Assembly (NCBI GenBank): GCA_009784185.1
Contig: WRCD01000002.1
Location: forward strand, 53,384-117,383
DNA: 64,000 nucleotides
Origin: Bacillota bacterium
GTDB lineage: Bacteria > Bacillota > Clostridia > Christensenellales > UBA1242
Reading direction: 5' to 3'
Each line of letters begins with the position of its first letter. The stretch's first letter is position 1. Below, in pieces: positions 10,400-57,000 of this stretch. The notes below the pieces were generated by a model. It had not been told where the DNA came from and did not search any database. It saw only the letters and a program-made list of their open reading frames with translations. A program made the position numbers and the translations under genes.

Positions 10400-10507
10400 A
10401 ATTCTCCCTTAAGCTAAGGGGGTGGTGCGGAGCGCCGGGGGTTGTGATAAACTAACAGAACACAACCCTCCCGCCTGCGGCGTACTCCCTTAGCTTAAGG
10501 GAGAATT
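10400..10507. repeat. Family A inverted doublet (REPIN-like)
   Basis: Forward unit 10400-10446 and reverse unit 10461-10507, 14-bp spacer. Confidence 0.9.
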
Positions 10508-10659: not shown

Positions 10660-10770
10660 AATTCTTCCTTAAGCTAAGGGAGTACCGCTAGCCTAGCGGG
10701 GAGGGTTGTGTTTCATATCCTGTCACAACCCCCGGTGCTTTGCACCACCCCCTTTACTAAAGGGGGAATT
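10660..10770. repeat. Family A inverted doublet in the secA leader
   Basis: Forward 10660-10710, reverse 10724-10770; between TATAAT (10641) and the secA SD. Confidence 0.9.
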
Positions 10771-10791
10771 ATTAATTCAAGGAGAACATCA

Positions 10792-13500
10792 ATGGCTTTT
10801 TTAGGAATATTTGCCTCAGACAATGAGCGCGCGCTGAAGCAGGTTGAAAAAACTGCGCAAAAAATAGAAGCGCTTTCTGATAAATACAAGGCAATGAATG
10901 ATACCGAGCTGAGAGCAGTTACGCCTGCGCTTAAGGCTAGGCTTGAGGCGGGTGAAACATTAAACGACATCCTGCCGGATGCCTTTGCCGCAATCCGCGA
11001 AGCCAGTGTGCGTGTTATAAATCAGCGCCCTTTTCATAGTCAGGTTGTGGGCGGAATTGTGCTGCATCAGGGCAGAATTGCCGAAATGAAAACAGGTGAA
11101 GGTAAAACGCTGGTGGCAACTCTGCCGGCTTATTTAAACGCGCTTGCCGGCAAGGGAGTGCACGTAGTTACGGTAAACGAGTACCTGGCCGGCCTTGCTG
11201 CAGAATGGATGGGTAAGATTTTTAAATTTATGGGGCTTAGCGTTGGCTGCAGCTTTAGTCAGATGGACCCTATGCAAAAGCGGGATGCTTATGCCTGCGA
11301 TATTACTTATGTAACAAACAGCGAACTCGGTTTTGACTATCTGCGTGATAACATGGCGCAAAAAGCCCAGGACAGAATGCAGCGCGGGTTTAGTTTTGCT
11401 ATTGTTGACGAGGTGGACAGCATTTTAATTGATGAAGCCCGAACCCCGCTCATTATTTCCGGCCGCGGCTTTAAAAGCAGTGATACGTACACTAAGGTTC
11501 AGCGGTTTATAAAAACCTTAAAGCGCGATACCGACTACAAGGTGGACGAAGAGAAAAAAGCAATTCACTTAACCGAGGACGGGCAGGAGCGGGCAGAGCA
11601 GCATTTTGGAGTTGAAAGCTTAAGCGACATGAATGCAATGGAGCTTAACCAGCATATTATGAACGCCTTGCGAGCTAACTACATGATGCGCCGTGAATCG
11701 GATTATATTGTAAAAGACGGCGAGGTTCTGCTGGTAGACGAGTTTACCGGCCGTATTATGGACGGCAGGCGGTACTCCGACGGTTTGCATCAGGCAATTG
11801 AGGCCAAGGAAGGCGTTCAGGTAAAAGATGAGCTGCTTACGGTGGCAAGTATTACTTTACAGAACTATTTCAGAATGTATAAAAAACTATCGGGCATGAC
11901 CGGTACCGCCAAAACCGAGGAAGGCGAATTTAACAAGATTTACGGCTTGGACGTTGTTAGTATCCCGACCAACCTGCCAATGATAAGAGTAGACGAACCC
12001 GACATTGTTTATGTAAACACAGCGGGCAAGCTGAAAGCTATTGTTAACCGTATTGAAGAAGCACATACAATAGGGCAGCCGGTGCTGGTTGGCACAACAA
12101 CAATTGAAAAATCCGAAGAAATTAGCAAAATGCTGAAACAAAAGAAGATTCCGCACCATGTGCTTAACGCAAAGTACCACGAACAGGAAGCTGAAATTGT
12201 GGCACAGGCCGGAAGACACGGCGCGGTTACAATTGCTACAAACATGGCGGGCCGTGGTACCGACATCCTGCTTGGAGGAAATCCCGACTTTCTGGCTAAG
12301 CAAAGCATGATAAAATCGGGCTATAATCACGCTCAGATTGAGCTTGCAAGCAGTTATCACATTGAAGCGGCCACAGACGAAACCAGAAAAGCAAAAACTG
12401 ACTTCGGTTCGGCAATAAAGAAGTTTTCATCTGAAACACAGGAAGAAAAGAAACGGGTAGTTGAAGCGGGCGGATTGCTTATAATCGGTACCGAGCGCCA
12501 TGAGTCCAGGCGTATAGATAACCAGCTAAGGGGGCGCGCAGGACGTCAGGGCGACCCCGGCAGAAGTGTATTTTACATTTCGCTTGAGGATGACCTTATA
12601 AGGCTTTTTGGAGGCGACAGGCTTAAAAGCATATCCGGGTTCTTCAGGCTTGATGAAGACACGCCGTTTCAGATTAAAATGCTTAGTAAGCAGATAGAGA
12701 ATGCTCAGAAAAAGGTTGAGGCCAACCATTACGGCATGCGCAGACGGCTGATTGAATACGATGACGTTATGAATAAACAACGCAGCCTGATATATGAGCA
12801 GAGAAATAAGATTCTGGACGGGCACGACGTGCACAGCGAGATTGTAGATATGTTCCCCGATATTGTGCGCGAGACAATTTACAAGGCTATTGATACCGAT
12901 AAGCCTAGTTTTGAGTGGAATTTAGACGAGATTAACGACACGCTTGAGGATAAGATATTCAAAAAAGGCACACGTTTTATAACCGAGAAAGACATTGAAG
13001 ACACCGACGAACATGAGCTGGTTGATAAAATATTAGACTATATTAATACCCAATACGAAACCAAAATAAAAGAAGTTGAAGAGCTTGGTATTAAGCATGA
13101 TATGATAGAGCGGTTTATTTTGCTTAGCAATGTTGACCGGGCATGGATGGAGCATATAGACGCCATGACAACTCTCAGGCGCGAAATCGGCACATTAGCG
13201 CACGGAAACCAGGACCCGATTGTTGCATATAAGCGCGAGGCGTTTAGTAAGTTTGATGAGATGATTGCTAAAATCCGCGAGAATACCGCAACCGTGCTGT
13301 TGAACCTGGAAAAGCCAACGGTTACGGTTACGCCGGCTGCTCCGCGCCCGCCGATGCAGAATTTGCAGACAGGAACCGAAACCATGCGCGGCGAAACTCC
13401 GCGGGTAGCCAAAGGCCCAGCTAAAAGTGATAAGCTAACCGGCAGAAACAGCCCATGCCCGTGCGGCAGCGGAAAGAAGTATAAAAACTGCTGCGGCTAA
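10792..13500 (+). CDS. secA: Preprotein translocase subunit SecA
   Basis: MKTGEGKT, DEVDSILIDEARTPLIISG, IDNQLRGRAGRQGDPG, C-terminal CPCGSGKKYKNCC; start at ATG after AAGGAG. Confidence 0.98.
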   Translation: MAFLGIFASDNERALKQVEKTAQKIEALSDKYKAMNDTELRAVTPALKARLEAGETLNDILPDAFAAIREASVRVINQRPFHSQVVGGIVLHQGRIAEMKTGEGKTLVATLPAYLNALAGKGVHVVTVNEYLAGLAAEWMGKIFKFMGLSVGCSFSQMDPMQKRDAYACDITYVTNSELGFDYLRDNMAQKAQDRMQRGFSFAIVDEVDSILIDEARTPLIISGRGFKSSDTYTKVQRFIKTLKRDTDYKVDEEKKAIHLTEDGQERAEQHFGVESLSDMNAMELNQHIMNALRANYMMRRESDYIVKDGEVLLVDEFTGRIMDGRRYSDGLHQAIEAKEGVQVKDELLTVASITLQNYFRMYKKLSGMTGTAKTEEGEFNKIYGLDVVSIPTNLPMIRVDEPDIVYVNTAGKLKAIVNRIEEAHTIGQPVLVGTTTIEKSEEISKMLKQKKIPHHVLNAKYHEQEAEIVAQAGRHGAVTIATNMAGRGTDILLGGNPDFLAKQSMIKSGYNHAQIELASSYHIEAATDETRKAKTDFGSAIKKFSSETQEEKKRVVEAGGLLIIGTERHESRRIDNQLRGRAGRQGDPGRSVFYISLEDDLIRLFGGDRLKSISGFFRLDEDTPFQIKMLSKQIENAQKKVEANHYGMRRRLIEYDDVMNKQRSLIYEQRNKILDGHDVHSEIVDMFPDIVRETIYKAIDTDKPSFEWNLDEINDTLEDKIFKKGTRFITEKDIEDTDEHELVDKILDYINTQYETKIKEVEELGIKHDMIERFILLSNVDRAWMEHIDAMTTLRREIGTLAHGNQDPIVAYKREAFSKFDEMIAKIRENTATVLLNLEKPTVTVTPAAPRPPMQNLQTGTETMRGETPRVAKGPAKSDKLTGRNSPCPCGSGKKYKNCCG

Positions 13501-13968
13501 ATTCCCCTCTATAAGAGGGGTGGCGGCGGAGCCGACGGGGTGTGGATGAAAACAGAAATGCAAAACAATAAAAACTCTGATTTGCCTTGTAATATAGAAC
13601 TAAAGAAACTAGCCTCCGAGTTAAGAAAGGCAGGCAACTTGTCGGAGGCTTTGTTGTGGTTGCAAATAAAGAACCGGAAGCTTAAAGGGCTGTGCTTTGA
13701 CAGACAAAAAGTTATTGGTAATTATATAGTGGACTTTTACTGTGCGGACAAAAGAGTTGTAATTGAAATTGACGGCACAACACATGATTACAAATATGAG
13801 TACGATAAAGAACGAGATGAATATTTGAAAAGTTTTGGATTGAAGGTTGTTCACATCTTGGATATAGATGTTAAACAAAATTTGGCGGGCGTGATGCAAT
13901 TTTTGGAGGAGAATATATAATTTGTATCCACACCCCGCCCTGCGGGCACCCCTCTTATAGAGGGGAAT
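13501..13968 (+). mobile_element. Putative element: DUF559 endonuclease gene bracketed by inverted family A repeats
   Basis: The left end (13501-13547) and the reverse complement of the right end (13926-13968) share an identical outer 22 bp (ATTCCCCTCTATAAGAGGGGTG) and inner 12 bp (CGGGGTGTGGAT). Confidence 0.7.
13546..13920 (+). CDS. DUF559 (Vsr/PD-(D/E)xK-like) endonuclease domain protein
   Basis: ELRK..SEALLW, RQKVIGNYIVDFYC, VIEIDG..H, YDKERDEYL..GLKV. Confidence 0.9.
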   Translation: MKTEMQNNKNSDLPCNIELKKLASELRKAGNLSEALLWLQIKNRKLKGLCFDRQKVIGNYIVDFYCADKRVVIEIDGTTHDYKYEYDKERDEYLKSFGLKVVHILDIDVKQNLAGVMQFLEENI

Positions 13969-13986
13969 CTTTTGTTAGGTTGTTGT

Positions 13987-15510
13987 CTAATTATTCAATT
14001 CCTCAATTATTACCTTTCCGTCAAGCCAGCTGGCAAATATGCCGGATAGATTTGTTCGGCTGCCTTTGTTCATGGATTCAATTAAGCAATCCGGAGTTGC
14101 GTTTTTAAATGCGTTGGTTTTATAGTAATGCTGGAGTCCCGCCAGCATTTTCTTTTCGCCTATTGCTTCGTATACGGAGTCAAACATGAGGAGGCCGCGC
14201 ACATAGGTCATATACACATATTCCGGTTCGGTTGTATACTCGTATAAATTACGCCGCATATTGCTGTTGACAGAGCCGTAAAAACTGCTGTAAACATCAC
14301 AGAACAACAAATACGCATTAAGTGCGTTGCCAATTACTTCCTGGTAGCTGTTTTCGTACCCAGAGTTGTGCTTATAAAACAGTGCCGTGCTAAACTCGGT
14401 TAGCCCCTCATCCAGCCACGGGTGGCTTACTGCATTGCTGCCCACAAGCCCGTACCACCATTGATGCGCAATTTCGTGTATTATTACGTGCTGATATTCG
14501 CTGTCGTTAGCAATGCTGTCGGATATATAAACCAAATTAGGATATTCCATGCCTCCGTGCAGAAAATTGGCTTTAGCCACATTCAGCGTACTGTACGGGT
14601 ATTCTCCAAACAACTTGCCGAAGGTGCTAATTGCATCAATGGCAGTGTTTAAAAACTTAGCCGGATTTTCGTCATTGTAATAAAAGTAGCTTATAGTTGT
14701 ATGCTTAACTTTTTGGCTGACGGTATTAAACTTACTGCTCAGCACCATTGCAAAATCCCGCACGGCTTTTGCTTCTATTAGATAAGCGGTATTGTTGCCG
14801 GCAATTTTCACGTCTTTTATTTCGCCTGTGCTGGCTAAGACCATATTGCTGGGTGCGGCCAGTGACACGGTGTAGTTTGCTGTATCGGAATAAAACGGGT
14901 CGCCGTTGGGGCTATATGGGTCAGTGATGAACCGCCCGGACTCATACACGCAGACTATCGGATACCAGTTGCCGAGATTAGTGGTGTTGTCTCCGTATCC
15001 AAAGCGGTGAGCAATGTTGGGTATGGTCAGTGCAAAGCCGATGGTTATTTCCACCGCTGAGCCGGCAGTCAATTGATTTGGCAGGGCAACAATCAGGTAA
15101 TGCCCGTCATCTCCACCCAGCTTAACCGGCACTTGTGTGTCGCCGACCTTCAGGTGGATAATATCAATTCCGCCTTCGCTGAAACCGTTTGGGTAGGCCT
15201 TGGCAGAGCTTCCTGCATGAACGGGCTTGTTTTTAGCGGTTCCTCTATACGCATTTGGGTACAGGTGAAACAAGACAGAATCCAGCGGCACGCCGGTTTT
15301 GTTTATGTACCGCACTTCCTGCTTTGCGCTTAAAGTGTTATCACTGCCGAGAACCGCGCTGATGTTGTATTGCGTAAGATTTCTGCTGTGCTTATCCAAT
15401 AGAGAACCGCCGTCACAACTAACCAGCATAACCGTGCAAGTGCAGATGATTGCCAGAATTACGGCAAAAGAAACAACTTTTTTAAAGTTTAACTTAATGG
15501 TTGTAATCAT
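13987..15510 (-). CDS. M1 family (gluzincin) aminopeptidase, probable lipoprotein
   Basis: GGMEYP, HEIAHQWW, WLDEGLTE; signal ending MLVSC. The longer ORF-track start runs through a repeat and is rejected. Confidence 0.9.
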   Translation of the reverse strand: MITTIKLNFKKVVSFAVILAIICTCTVMLVSCDGGSLLDKHSRNLTQYNISAVLGSDNTLSAKQEVRYINKTGVPLDSVLFHLYPNAYRGTAKNKPVHAGSSAKAYPNGFSEGGIDIIHLKVGDTQVPVKLGGDDGHYLIVALPNQLTAGSAVEITIGFALTIPNIAHRFGYGDNTTNLGNWYPIVCVYESGRFITDPYSPNGDPFYSDTANYTVSLAAPSNMVLASTGEIKDVKIAGNNTAYLIEAKAVRDFAMVLSSKFNTVSQKVKHTTISYFYYNDENPAKFLNTAIDAISTFGKLFGEYPYSTLNVAKANFLHGGMEYPNLVYISDSIANDSEYQHVIIHEIAHQWWYGLVGSNAVSHPWLDEGLTEFSTALFYKHNSGYENSYQEVIGNALNAYLLFCDVYSSFYGSVNSNMRRNLYEYTTEPEYVYMTYVRGLLMFDSVYEAIGEKKMLAGLQHYYKTNAFKNATPDCLIESMNKGSRTNLSGIFASWLDGKVIIEELNN

Positions 15511-15533
15511 GCTATAGGTATATGTGCTGCTGC

Positions 15534-15675
15534 AATGAATAATGAATAATGAATAATGAATAATGAATAATGAATAATGTCGGGTCGCTTTCGCTCCGAA
15601 CAAATGCTGTCATTGCGAGCACGCACAAAATTCCCCTCTACAAGAGGGGTGCCGAGTTTGCGAGGCGGGGTGTGG
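15534..15675 (+). repeat. Mosaic repeat: (AATGAAT)x6 + GGGTCGCTTTCGCTCC + truncated family B (GTCATTGCGAGC) + family A unit
   Basis: Heptamers 15534-15575; family B head 15609-15620; family A 15629-15675. Confidence 0.85.
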
Positions 15676-15694
15676 AGAACTTTCCCAAAAACCC

Positions 15695-20658: not shown

Positions 20659-20778
20659 AATTCCCCTCTATAAGAGGGGTGTCACGAAGTGACGGGGTGT
20701 GGTTGCTTACAGCAGCTTTTGCTCTATCCACACCCCGTCAAACCTGACGGTTTGCCACCCCTCTTATAGAGGGGAATT
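20659..20778. repeat. Family A inverted doublet ('empty' form of the DUF559 element)
   Basis: Both ends read AATTCCCCTCTATAAGAGGGGTG, as in the DUF559 flanks; about 25-bp spacer. Confidence 0.92.
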
Positions 20779-32817: not shown

Positions 32818-32826
32818 GTATTAACT

Positions 32827-32869
32827 CCACACCCCCCACTTCGTGGCACCCCTCTTATAGAGGGGAATT
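32827..32869 (-). repeat. Family A singlet (reverse)
   Basis: CCACACCCCCCACTTCGTGGCACCCCTCTTATAGAGGGGAATT. Confidence 0.88.
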
Positions 32870-33999: not shown

Positions 34000-34107
34000 A
34001 ATTCCCCTTTGCTCCGCTAAGGGGTGGCAGGCGAAGCCTGACGGGGTAGTTGCTTGCGTTATCACATACCCCGCCCTTCGGGCACCCCTTTATCTTAAAG
34101 GGGAATT
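34000..34107. repeat. Family A inverted doublet
   Basis: AATTCCCCTT..AAGGGGTGGCAGGCGAAGCCTGACGGGGT ... ACCCCGCCCTTCGGGCACCCCTTT..AAAGGGGAATT. Confidence 0.88.
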
Positions 34108-37491: not shown

Positions 37492-38298
37492 ATGGAAAGG
37501 AAACAGGAACAACTTTATTATAAAAACAAGAAACACATTGCATCAAGGGTGCAAAAAGAGCCGCAGCCTGATGAGGACAAGATTTTAGCATATCTTAAAA
37601 GCGGCAATTGCTTCGTAGCTTCGCCTGGAATTGCTGATGATATTTTTGCGCCTGAAAAACGCATTCTTGGCCCGTACTGTTATACCGATGGCGAGTGGGA
37701 CTGGGACAGTGCGCTAGTCTATTACATAGAAAACTACCACTTCAGAATCTCAGACGAATTTCTTGCGCATATAAAGGCTAAAAACTGGAAGTGTCATAGA
37801 ATGTCAAAAAAAGAGATATATGGATTTTGCAAGGCAGATTATATGGAAACATTAATGCGTATAGCTCTTGTTGAAGCCAAAAAGGCTGCTGCTGCCGACG
37901 AAGTGCCGGTGGGTGCTGTGGTTGTTAGAGACGGAGAGATTGTTGCGCGGGCACATAACTGTAAAATAAAAAACAACTCGGCATTTGCGCACGCCGAGCT
38001 AATAGCAATGACCAAAGCCGCAAAAAAACTGGGGGATTGGCGCCTTAACGAGTGTACGCTTTTTGTAACGTTAGAGCCATGCCCCATGTGCGCGGGTGCA
38101 ATAATAAACGCCAGAGTAAAGGAAGTGGTGTTTGGGGCATACGACCCCAAAGCCGGCTGCTGCGGCACGCTGTATAACTTGCCGGAAGATAAGCGCTTTA
38201 ACCACCGAGCAAAAGTAACCGGCGGAGTGCTGGAAGAAGAATGCGGCAGGATACTGACAGAGTATTTTAAAACGAAACGGAAAAATTCCCCTCTATAA
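37492..38298 (+). CDS. tadA: tRNA adenosine(34) deaminase TadA with an extra N-terminal domain of about 117 aa
   Basis: EVPVGAVVV, AHAEL, VTLEPCPMCAGA, YDPKAG; TadA core begins at ATG 37843. Confidence 0.88.
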   Translation: MERKQEQLYYKNKKHIASRVQKEPQPDEDKILAYLKSGNCFVASPGIADDIFAPEKRILGPYCYTDGEWDWDSALVYYIENYHFRISDEFLAHIKAKNWKCHRMSKKEIYGFCKADYMETLMRIALVEAKKAAAADEVPVGAVVVRDGEIVARAHNCKIKNNSAFAHAELIAMTKAAKKLGDWRLNECTLFVTLEPCPMCAGAIINARVKEVVFGAYDPKAGCCGTLYNLPEDKRFNHRAKVTGGVLEEECGRILTEYFKTKRKNSPL

Positions 38299-38328
38299 GA
38301 GGGGTGCCCGCATTGGGGCGGGGTGTGG
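38284..38328 (+). repeat. Family A singlet; supplies the tadA stop codon and is the left bound of the cargo block
   Basis: AATTCCCCTCTATAAGAGGGGTGCCCGCATTGGGGCGGGGTGTGG. Confidence 0.88.
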
Positions 38329-38521
38329 GCAATTGAGAATAAAATTCGTAGGTCAGAAAGACCCTGCTAATGGTGGTGAAAATGAGTAAAAAACCACAGG
38401 ATGCGTGGGGAAAAGTGGCAAATTTCAGCCCACCTACGAACTTAATAGTTCATACGACTAATTCACTATGCACCCACAATATGGCAACCGCATACTGCCA
38501 CAATATCAAAAGGAGAAAAAT

Positions 38522-47822: not shown

Positions 47823-47949
47823 ATCGCAAAATCAAAACTTATTGAAATCAAAATCGCAAATTCAAACAGGGAATAATCAAAAATGATGGGTGTCGCAAAA
47901 TCAAATCAAAAAATCAAAAGCAGACATCATGGTGTGCAAGCCCAAAAAA

Positions 47950-48877
47950 GTCACGGGGACGGAGGTGTTGACACAGAAAACAGTTGACAACGTCCACAAA
48001 AACTCTTACAATCTAAATTGTAGGAGTTTTTGTTTATGCCAAGGAAAGCAAGAAAAGATACAGATGGAAAGTTTTTCCATGTAATGGTGCAGGGGATTGG
48101 TAAAGAATATATTTTTCCTGATGACGATTGCAAAGGCTATTATCTATCCTGTTTGAAGAAAAGTAAAACCAAGCTTCCCGCTAAAATACTTGCTTATTGC
48201 GTGATGGGCAACCATGCGCATGTTTTGGTGAGTGTTCAAAATGCGCAGGAGCTAGCTTTGTTTTTAAGGCAAGCAAACGGAGATTACGCCAGATATTATA
48301 ACAACACTCGCAACAGGGTGGGCTACGTGTTTAGAGACAGGTATCGGAGCGAAGTGATTCAAGATGAGCGATATTTAATACATTGTGTGGCATACATACA
48401 CAACAACCCGTTAAAGGCGGGGTTGGTGGAACGTGCAGAAAACTATAAATATTCAAGCTATGTTAATTACTTAACCAAGAAGGGCATGGTAGATTTTGAT
48501 GAGGCGGCTAAGTTGTTTGATACAAGTGAGAGAAGCATGAGAGCTATCATGTTGGAAAAAACCGGAGCGAACTGGCTGGAGCATGACGACAAAGAATATG
48601 AAGACAAACACAAAGTATTGACTGAATTAATAAAAAAGTATAATATATCGTCAAAGGCATCGGTTAGAAACGAAGAACTTGCTAAGGCGCTGACTATGGA
48701 GTTGCAAGAGAGAAGCGGTGTCAGTTTGCGGGAAGTCGCAATATTATTGGAGGTTAGCCGAGAATGGTTAAGAAGAGTTGTGTCAACACCCCCGTCCCCC
48801 TGACCATCCCCGTGACCACCCCCGTCCCCCTGACCATCCCCCTGACCACCCCCGTCCCCCTGACCATCCCCCTGACC
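47950..48877 (+). mobile_element. RAYT-like Y1 transposase element with 25-bp inverted ends and a tandemly amplified right end
   Basis: 47950-47974 and 48780-48804 are inverted repeats (23/25 match); a 30-bp unit is repeated three times at 48787-48876. Confidence 0.8.
48036..48803 (+). CDS. REP-associated tyrosine transposase (IS200/Y1_Tnp HUH family)
   Basis: MPRKAR, FHVMVQG, AYCVMGNHAH (HUH), GYVFRDRYRS, YIHNNPLKAG, YKYSSY, C-terminal HTH. Confidence 0.92.
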   Translation: MPRKARKDTDGKFFHVMVQGIGKEYIFPDDDCKGYYLSCLKKSKTKLPAKILAYCVMGNHAHVLVSVQNAQELALFLRQANGDYARYYNNTRNRVGYVFRDRYRSEVIQDERYLIHCVAYIHNNPLKAGLVERAENYKYSSYVNYLTKKGMVDFDEAAKLFDTSERSMRAIMLEKTGANWLEHDDKEYEDKHKVLTELIKKYNISSKASVRNEELAKALTMELQERSGVSLREVAILLEVSREWLRRVVSTPPSP

Positions 48878-49330
48878 ATGGACAAAAAAGAGTTTTTCAG
48901 AATTACGCAGGAAGTCTTTGCTGAATATGGGTTTAAGGTGGATGGGAAGTATTTTTATTTAGATTTGTCAGAGGTTCATATTACTGCAGTCCTTGCAAAA
49001 GCACATGGCATTTATTTCTTGGGGTATAATTTTAGTATTAAAGCAATACATGAAGGGGAAATTAAGCCTAGAGACGAATTTGCCGGACACGACAGTCACT
49101 TGATAAACATGAGCAATTATAAAAATGAACGGTGGCTTGAATATGAAAACATGCCAAAAGAGACGTACATTAATGACCTAAAAGAAATGCTTCCAAGATA
49201 TTTTAATCCGTACAAAAAAGATGCTATAGGTTACATTAAAAAAATTGCTGTTATACCGGGCGTTATTTACAAAAAAGACATAGTGGTAATCTTCAAAGAA
49301 GCGCAGGCATATTTAGGAATCAAGTATTAA
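48878..49330 (+). CDS. Hypothetical protein
   Basis: ATG right after the tandem repeats; the longer ORF-track start translates the repeats. Confidence 0.65.
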   Translation: MDKKEFFRITQEVFAEYGFKVDGKYFYLDLSEVHITAVLAKAHGIYFLGYNFSIKAIHEGEIKPRDEFAGHDSHLINMSNYKNERWLEYENMPKETYINDLKEMLPRYFNPYKKDAIGYIKKIAVIPGVIYKKDIVVIFKEAQAYLGIKY

Positions 49331-56778: not shown

Positions 56779-56953
56779 TTGAAAACCGCCAGTTGTTTGT
56801 TATGTAATATTGCCATTATAGTCTAGTTTATGATTTTGTCCAAATGTTTTGTCATGGTTTCTTTCAATTCCCTGTCTATTCGTGAAAAACAGGCAAAGAA
56901 TGCGGTTTTGCCGGGGGTGCCGGCAAAGGAGAAAGGATGTATACTTTTCCTAA

Positions 56954-57000
56954 CCACACCCCGTCGGCTGACGCTGATACCCCTCTTGCAGAGGGGAATT
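56954..57000 (-). repeat. Family A singlet (reverse) in the spoIIE leader
   Basis: CCACACCCCGTCGGCTGACGCTGATACCCCTCTTGCAGAGGGGAATT. Confidence 0.85.

Follow-up and report, generated by a model that had tools for sequence, protein, structure and literature searches.

The stretch of DNA analysed here (hereafter the window; 64,000 nucleotides, G000:C2:53384-117383) comes from a source genome, G000, represented by a 1.16-Mb assembly of 19 contigs (44.3% GC, 94% complete). Between the convergent genes secA and an M1 peptidase gene, it carries a cassette in which two inverted double-hairpin ends enclose a single gene of the DUF559 family (Table 1). An earlier note on this DNA, made from its letters, had described an AT-rich DUF559 gene in this position, flanked by inverted repeat units of one family (family A) with constant outer and inner parts and differing middle hairpins; the Pfam match, the coordinates and the GC content (35.2%, against 44.3% for the genome) agree with the first part of that description, and the alignment of the arms agrees with the second. 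Specifically, both arms, read directly, have the form AATTCCCCTCTATAAGAGGGGTG - variable hairpin - CGGGGTGTGGAT, with the middle hairpin as their sole difference, and they pair as 13501-13532 with 13937-13968 (32 nt, 88% complementary) and as 13536-13552 with 13921-13937 (17 nt, 88%). The left end begins directly 3' of the secA stop codon, the DUF559 ATG abuts the left inner motif, and the DUF559 stop codon is followed, 7 nt on, by the right inner motif. Two DNA hairpins are predicted for the left end (z -4.09 against 200 shuffles); on the plus strand, hairpin 1 of the right end is followed by AATCTTTTGT, which gives a terminator-like score, and a promoter scan found no promoter-like site upstream of the DUF559 gene within the element. 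The open frame of the cassette, including the translated left end (13498-13546), is the same frame as that of secA. Among public sequencing runs, window DNA occurs in one DNA run, which consists of contigs and probably comes from the source sample, and in no listed RNA run. These contigs break at repeats in the cassette region; one contig joint, from 13524 to 13929, was set aside as evidence of excision, as its shorter side is only 24 letters and it is probably another doublet (a pair of inverted units).

Table 1. Coordinates of the cassette, its neighbours and related repeats (window positions unless a contig or locus is given)
Feature	Position	Strand	Description
Cassette	13499-13970		~470 bp; two inverted ~46-bp double-hairpin ends around one DUF559 gene
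Left end, family A unit	13499..13545	+	AAATTCCCC, hairpin 1 (CCCCTCT-ATA-AGAGGGG), TG, variable hairpin 2 (GCGGCGGAGCCGAC), inner motif CGGGGTGTGG
DUF559 gene (predicted Vsr-like PD-(D/E)xK)	13546..13920	+	124 aa from ATG; 126 aa from GTG at 13540
Right end, inverted family A unit	13921..13970	-	hairpin 2 differs from that of the left end (GCCCGCAGGGC)
secA	10708-13500	+	convergent neighbour
M1 peptidase gene	13987-15603	-	convergent neighbour
Gene-less A/A doublet	20659..20778		outer and inner motifs of the cassette, other hairpin-2 sequences, ~25-nt unrelated spacer
Gene-less family E doublet	10400..10507		hairpin 1 CCCCC...GGGGG, inner motif GGGGGTTGTG
Second family E doublet	10660..10770		just upstream of secA
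Mixed doublet	34000..34107		family D arm (inner GGGGTAG) facing family B arm (inner GGGGTATGTGA)
Solo family A unit	15629..15676	+	just beyond the start of the M1 peptidase gene
Solo family A unit	32820..32869	-	extent approximate
Solo family A unit	38284..38335	+	extent approximate
Diverged family A unit	56950..57000	-	3 mismatches in outer 21-mer; extent approximate
RAYT-like gene	48036-48803		with inverted flanks, region 47940-48885
Hairpin-1 family with longer interior	G000 C1:70421, C1:72113, C3:72805, C6:22423, C7:19990, C7:27359, C9:4947		
In-frame cassettes with translated hairpin ends	L019, L039, L042, L048, L065, L080, others		in several types of restriction-modification gene

The predicted protein scores 101.8 bits with the Pfam family DUF559 (PF04480; cut-off 20.6; E 2.5e-29), and the six paralogues in G000 score 88-106 bits. 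In the PDB, its sequence matches 3hrl (E 3e-19), and a Foldseek search with the AlphaFold model (pLDDT 80.5) returned 3hrl (E 1.9e-5), 3r3p, which is I-Bth0305I (E 2.8e-4), and 1vsr, which is Vsr (E 1.8e-2). By this model, the DUF559 protein has a Vsr-type restriction-endonuclease-like fold, and parts of PMC3424549 and PMC3239194 provide the grouping, with DUF559, Vsr and EDxHD nucleases, to which such an enzyme would belong. Across the six paralogues, 50 columns are invariant, including E34, D76, H80, D106 and D108; the E/D/H/D residues would be equivalent to E25/D51/H69/D97 of Vsr, as mapped by their spacing only. The paralogues are 56-70% identical, with one pair at 95%, and all six genes are AT-rich (34-38% GC). 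In the 15 paralogue pairs, the proportion of synonymous differences (pS) is 0.74-0.96, saturated between paralogues, and that of nonsynonymous differences (pN) is 0.18-0.30; the sole unsaturated pair, two copies with ends of family B, gives substitution rates of 0.21 per synonymous site (dS) and 0.02 per nonsynonymous site (dN), with dN/dS 0.10. Because pN lies far below a saturated pS, and because the ratio of the B pair is 0.10, we conclude that the DUF559 proteins are maintained by purifying selection. Two further assignments were tried and rejected: the defence-system search (PADLOC) gave weak partial matches only (DpdF, E 3.7e-4; PDC-S69, E 2e-3), and the score against PRK09767 (NCBIfam) fell far below its cut-off.

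Units like those at the ends of the cassette are dispersed through the genome. Each is made up of an A-rich lead-in (with A frequencies of 90-96% at positions -1/-2 and 72-76% at positions -3/-4), hairpin 1 (CCCC...GGGG), TG with a second hairpin, and an inner GGGGT motif. A generic search recovered 319 hairpin-1 units in G000, and the stricter pattern AATTCCCCTN{5,13}AGGGGTG recovered 266, with none for its reversed control. The sequence of hairpin 1 is tightly linked to the inner motif, and the two together define families: among units with a readable inner motif, 67/72 hairpin-A units carry GGGGTGTGG, 37/38 hairpin-B units carry GGGGTAT, and 30/33 hairpin-C units carry GGGGTGGT. Hairpin 2, by contrast with this constancy, is free to vary in sequence and length with its pairing kept; it often has a C-GNA-G triloop, and identical variants are found in different families. 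GNA triloops are very stable DNA mini-hairpins. A single unit is predicted to form two DNA hairpins (z about -4) and a doublet a four-way junction, as in the fold obtained for positions 20659-20778 as a single strand (-45 kcal/mol, z -10.4). Adjacent units less than 150 bp apart face each other in 55 cases and face away in 5, and 265 of the 319 units (83%) lie outside open frames of at least 250 aa, which cover 75% of the genome. Solo hairpin-1 terminator-like sites are present in G000 as well, and a further repeat family has the same hairpin 1 with a different, longer interior (CGCGACGCGTAAAGCAAACAGCG...GCTGTTTGTAGCC...). With up to 3 mismatches allowed, the outer 21-mer has 8 matches in the window, where 100 shuffles gave none; the genome holds 82. 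The earlier note had also pointed to a gene-less doublet with the ends of the cassette and a spacer of about 25 nt, which is present, and to more diverged doublets near 10400, 10660 and 34000, which were found at the positions given in Table 1.

Within G000, the association between gene and units is strict. Searches by tblastn and with the Pfam profile recovered six full DUF559 paralogues and one truncated copy. Each of the seven is enclosed by a pair of inward-facing units that directly adjoin its start and stop codons. The arm pairs of the full copies are same-family in every case (A/A, A/A, B/B, B/B, C/C and D/D; two of the right arms are cut by contig ends), whereas same-family arms occur in only 17 of the 52 gene-less doublets, with no B/B or C/C pair among them. 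If the six pairs were drawn like gene-less doublets, the chance of six in six would be about 0.001 by simple arithmetic. Further, the two B copies, the pair with 95% amino acid identity, occupy separate loci; AATTCCCC marks the exact onset of their similarity, the flanks outside are unrelated, and the homologous stretch is thus the cassette from end to end. These B cassettes (C10:47-493 and C1:278880-279251, on contigs that both end inside the right-hand end) have wholly different hairpin 2 sequences (13 nt vs 16 nt) in ends that are otherwise near-identical; hairpin 2 seems to be exchanged as a block rather than by stepwise mutation. The truncated copy (C1:178409-178800) runs for about 50 codons to a stop between arms of two families (F and E) and looks like a decayed or recombined cassette.

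The association is also strict across genomes. No stand-alone DUF559 gene was found in 18 genomes of the same family (0/18; in four of them, weak matches are all that appears, and these fall within open frames of 719-1562 aa), and the unit pattern has no match in 29 of 30 relatives. The sole relative with units (six; G029) also has a strong DUF559. In this genome, which is of the same order, the outer hairpins of the units face the DUF559 gene (L009:430-960), opposite to their orientation in G000. In a 400-genome sample of the phylum, at least two units occur only in G376 (64), G063 (29) and G290 (2), and these three are exactly the genomes with the DUF559 subfamily: G290 and G376, with a full gene each, are the only ones with matches to the subfamily profile at E 1e-40 or better, and G063 has an N-terminal DUF559 fragment adjoining tandem units. 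Four genomes with other DUF559 subfamilies hold no units of the G000 type, and some of them have other hairpin repeats.

The same arrangement recurs far beyond the phylum. A scan of species-representative genomes yielded 80 loci, the most query-similar ones rather than a random DUF559 sample, with proteins 55-68% identical to that of the window; their source taxa include Dojkabacteria, Atribacterota, Bacteroidota, Ignavibacteria, Nitrosomonas, Methylotenera, Desulfobulbaceae, Cloacimonadota and others. Ten loci lie too near contig ends for a flank test. Among the 70 testable loci, 51 have a flank inverted-repeat score of at least 15, as compared with 0 of 603 shifted windows of the same loci (medians 21 vs 8), and their flanks are units of this kind too, as in AATTCCCCTCCTTTGGAGGGGTG - hairpin - CGGGGTGGT. 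In the protein tree, the class of the ends changes 11 times, against 24-33 times in 500 label shuffles (computed on 70 of 86 rows, after exclusion of the 16 that lacked a single class); because kin share labels, this reflects co-inheritance of protein and end type, not independent events. The six G000 copies cluster with one other copy, L060 (Shimodaira-Hasegawa-like approximate likelihood ratio support 80). Five complete chromosomes with one gene each hold 1, 2, 7, 2 and 81 units, and in four of these chromosomes the units lie wholly or almost wholly beside the DUF559 gene. The units are thus primarily the ends of the gene itself, and their dispersal is an occasional burst. In G435, the genome of L072, the 81 dispersed units are mostly a variant without hairpin 2 (GGAGGGGCAGGGGTG), often in short tandem arrays, and the one DUF559 lies inside a 1287-aa open reading frame (ORF).

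Many of these cassettes are found within other genes. At 46 of the 80 loci, the frame is open for at least 60 aa on either side of the cassette, and 23 loci are stand-alone like that of G000. Eight of the 46 host ORFs were scanned, of which seven are restriction-modification genes (N6_N4 methylase, type ISP, Eco57I/TaqI_C type IIG, N6_Mtase plus Methylase_S, and HsdS-like) and one encodes an AP_endonuc_2 protein. In the type ISP hosts, the cassette splits the Type_ISP_C domain in two, and several type ISP loci from different phyla share one site, just before FAPID(I/L)LDYIYAVLHSP. Single units enter genes as well: the mnmE gene of G000 (G000:C1:54263-55927; L120) contains two of them in frame, as insertions of 16 aa and 40 aa that are absent from seven orthologues in relatives. 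The units are insertions relative to these orthologous genes.

We favour, with moderate confidence, the reading that the locus is a nuclease cassette that propagates itself and whose ends are the origin of repeats resembling repetitive extragenic palindromes (REPs) and miniature inverted-repeat transposable elements (MITEs), where the protein would be an active nuclease, specific for the ends and with a role in their mobility. A broader and more tentative proposal is that this DUF559 subfamily may comprise the mobilising enzymes of an unrecognised class of prokaryotic mobile element, with an autonomous cassette of ~0.45-0.55 kb that has inverted double-hairpin ends and a single gene for a Vsr-like nickase or nuclease, that crosses phyla, sits in frame inside restriction-modification or housekeeping genes, and occasionally bursts to hundreds of REP/MITE-like units. 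Under the favoured reading, the cassette would lack a promoter of its own and be read through from secA, with transcription probably ending at the right-hand hairpin. The DUF559 nuclease would most likely propagate the cassette and, in trans, the gene-less units and doublets, which would be analogues of MITEs and of REPINs (REP doublets). It may recognise the constant parts of each end, namely hairpin 1 and the inner GGGGT motif, with hairpin 2 needed solely as structure; paired ends would form a four-way junction on extruded or single-stranded DNA, and the outer boundary, adjoining AA|TTCCCC, might be where the protein nicks or cuts. Vsr is a nickase, and the DUF559 protein is possibly one likewise. 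Finally, the element would be copied or moved into A/T-rich sites without target-site duplication.

Several observations weigh against this reading. First, 19 of the 70 testable homologue loci score below 15, and the 80 loci were selected for their similarity to the query. In nine genomes of the 400-genome sample, the unit pattern matches once although the gene is absent; most of these matches look like chance, but the one in G046 looks canonical. Most other genomes have a single DUF559 copy and no dispersed units, and for this reason activity is not evident in them. Second, D63 of the VDF motif is kept in five of the six paralogues and is E in the C10 copy, and a Pfam scan found no separate DNA-binding domain in the 124-aa protein. 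Within G000, the protein tree and the end families are discordant (two A-type proteins are 66% identical, whereas C3_A and C16_C are 70% identical), so that cognate specificity between protein and end is unsupported inside this genome, as the tree does not track the family of the ends. Third, mixed doublets and solo units require an extra assumption, that single ends move alone, and many of the in-frame cassettes occupy a common site in the host gene, which could reflect transfer of that gene instead of repeated insertion. Finally, none of 63 pairs shows a direct duplication of 2-5 bp at the target (0/63), a result that fits several mechanisms and names none, and Y1_Tnp genes occur in four of the five unit-bearing genomes (G000, G376, G063 with 10 matches, and G290).

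An explanation that we consider unlikely, and that survives best among the rivals, is that DUF559 is a homing endonuclease gene, which cuts an empty target (a restriction-modification site or the spacer of a doublet) and is copied in during repair. The hairpin ends would then be accessory, as translatable linkers, insulators or terminators, and the roughly 300 gene-less units would be spread by something else. The nearest characterised structural relative of the protein by Foldseek is the catalytic domain of I-Bth0305I, described in part of PMC3239194, which suits this explanation, as do the residence of 46 of 80 loci in frame inside long ORFs, the same type ISP site in loci from different phyla, the lack of a target duplication, and the reported precedent of a homing insertion that stays in frame within a phage methylase and does not splice (PMC11855218). 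Homing, however, needs no terminal inverted repeats, and the ends accompany the gene even in genomes without other units, which argues that the gene is not simply invading pre-existing doublets; in G000, B/B and C/C pairs occur only around the gene. The protein also lacks the N-terminal NUMOD/helix-turn-helix (HTH) region of I-Bth0305I (described in the same part of PMC3239194), and homing leaves the solo units in mnmE and the abundance of units unexplained.

It is less probable still that the units are moved by another factor, such as a Y1 enzyme acting in trans that resembles the REP-associated tyrosine transposases (RAYTs), host replication or repair, or an unassembled transposase, with DUF559 as cargo that has some other selfish or defensive role. 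Y1_Tnp is found in four of five unit-bearing genomes versus 3 of 29 unit-free relatives, and the assembly is 94% complete, while repeats and insertion sequence (IS) elements often fail to assemble. Hairpin ends together with a missing target duplication are typical of HUH single-strand transposition. RAYTs, though, are defined by their own flanking REPs, and the RAYT-like gene of the window (Y1_Tnp, E 4e-10, with a C-terminal HTH-like tail), which is the only Y1_Tnp gene of G000, is flanked by an inverted motif of its own (GGGGACGGAGGTGTTGACAC) that is unrelated to the units and occurs four times in the genome; past this flank, a tandem repeat of about 30 bp (CCCCGTCCCCCTGACCA...) overlaps the start of the next ORF. 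No unit lies near any of the six Y1_Tnp loci of G376, G063 and G290, in the 1.8-2.7 kb around each, and G029 has units with no Y1_Tnp found, in a genome that is only 51% complete. Nor would cargo be expected to retain matched ends at its start and stop codons across phyla. The RAYT was rejected as the cognate enzyme of the units by its unrelated flanks and stays as a weak rival; a DDE-type IS or MITE was likewise rejected, given the lack of target duplication (0/63) and of any rve or DDE_Tnp_1 match in the 94%-complete G000 assembly, which has no OrfB_IS605 match either. Last and very improbable is the idea that the units are host-serving structures (bidirectional terminators or mRNA-stabilising hairpins) linked to DUF559 as a by-product of recombination at repeats, which accommodates the 265 of 319 units outside long open frames, hairpin 1 followed by AATTTT reading as an intrinsic terminator, and the solo hairpin-1 terminator-like sites, but fails on the seven bracketed copies of seven, the joint conservation of the gene and its ends across phyla, the 29 of 30 relatives that have no units, and the in-frame insertions in mnmE.

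The reading of a self-propagating nuclease cassette invites comparison with known systems, of which REPIN/RAYT is the one that the earlier note had named. In both, short palindromes are scattered over intergenic DNA and commonly form inverted pairs around a spacer, a candidate enzyme gene is flanked by inverted units, and gene-less doublets outnumber copies of the gene; here, this layout rests on 7/7 bracketed copies, 52 doublets and 266-319 units. Here, however, the enzyme would be a Vsr-like PD-(D/E)xK nuclease and not an HUH Y1 transposase, in most genomes the units occur solely as ends of the gene, and they are double hairpins with a freely varying second hairpin. RAYTs are typically single-copy according to parts of PMC5581495, whereas the bracketed DUF559 gene has six diverged copies and a fragment in G000, has no stand-alone homologue in same-family genomes, and belongs to a cassette common to many phyla. 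The analogy therefore stands for the bracketed gene and the gene-less doublets and has to be amended elsewhere: the gene is multi-copy and apparently horizontally spread rather than a single domesticated copy, its units are, in most genomes, solely its own ends, and the cassette is often in frame inside restriction-modification genes. The computable tests proposed in that note all favoured its interpretation: flanking inverted double-hairpin repeats are strongly enriched at DUF559 homologues, and the unit family flanks neither the RAYT of the window, which has different flanking repeats, nor the six Y1_Tnp loci of three other unit-bearing genomes. Units and subfamily also co-occur among the relatives and in the 400-genome sample.

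The EDxHD nuclease I-Bth0305I and Vsr share the predicted catalytic fold (3r3p at a template modelling score of 0.74, target-normalised; 1vsr also matched), a candidate E/D/H/D set in the paralogues, matched by spacing, and, in the homing case, a selfish-looking AT-rich gene inserted in conserved genes. As described in part of PMC3239194, I-Bth0305I joins an N-terminal NUMOD/HTH DNA-binding region to a Vsr-like catalytic domain; the element described here has no NUMOD/HTH N-terminal domain and no intron or intein, and it has terminal inverted hairpin repeats and gene-less derivatives. IS200/IS605 elements and MITEs are alike in their subterminal hairpins, lack of target-site duplication, very small size and abundant non-autonomous relatives, yet the ends here are symmetric inverted repeats rather than the distinct left and right ends of IS200/IS605, and no TnpA or TnpB is associated. 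Rickettsia palindromic elements likewise form palindromic insertions in frame inside protein genes, as the units do here in mnmE and the cassettes in restriction-modification genes of other phyla; to our knowledge, they encode no enzyme. The ShiLan homing insertion, which bears a nuclease gene, also stays in frame inside a protein-coding gene, but the HNH gene concealed in it is out of frame, and hairpin ends are absent (PMC11855218). In an excerpt of PMC9881135, 'DUF559 domain-containing protein' is 14-fold enriched among predicted targets of programmed inversion, an outcome that flanking inverted repeats would produce. We found no literature description of DUF559 or Vsr-like nucleases with terminal hairpins or derived dispersed repeats, in a search whose coverage excluded supplements and subscription journals.

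A single class of enzymes, the HUH tyrosine transposases (RAYTs), has so far been associated with the dispersed palindromic repeats of bacteria. In the present case, a repeat family is linked just as closely to another nuclease superfamily, by anatomy, co-occurrence, cross-phylum conservation and purifying selection. If the reading proposed here is true, the cassette would be a new type of mobile element, its autonomous form among the smallest self-propagating DNA elements, and it would provide a second, non-HUH origin for REP-like repeats and a role for a long-standing domain of unknown function. Annotation is affected as well: translated hairpin ends lengthen ORFs and produce apparent fusion proteins, and database 'fusion' proteins with an in-frame DUF559 may be insertion products. 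Should the nuclease move the repeats, this would offer a very small structure-specific DNA-cutting module for study, account for the odd nuclease insertions in many annotated restriction-modification enzymes, and explain part of the large DUF559 family.

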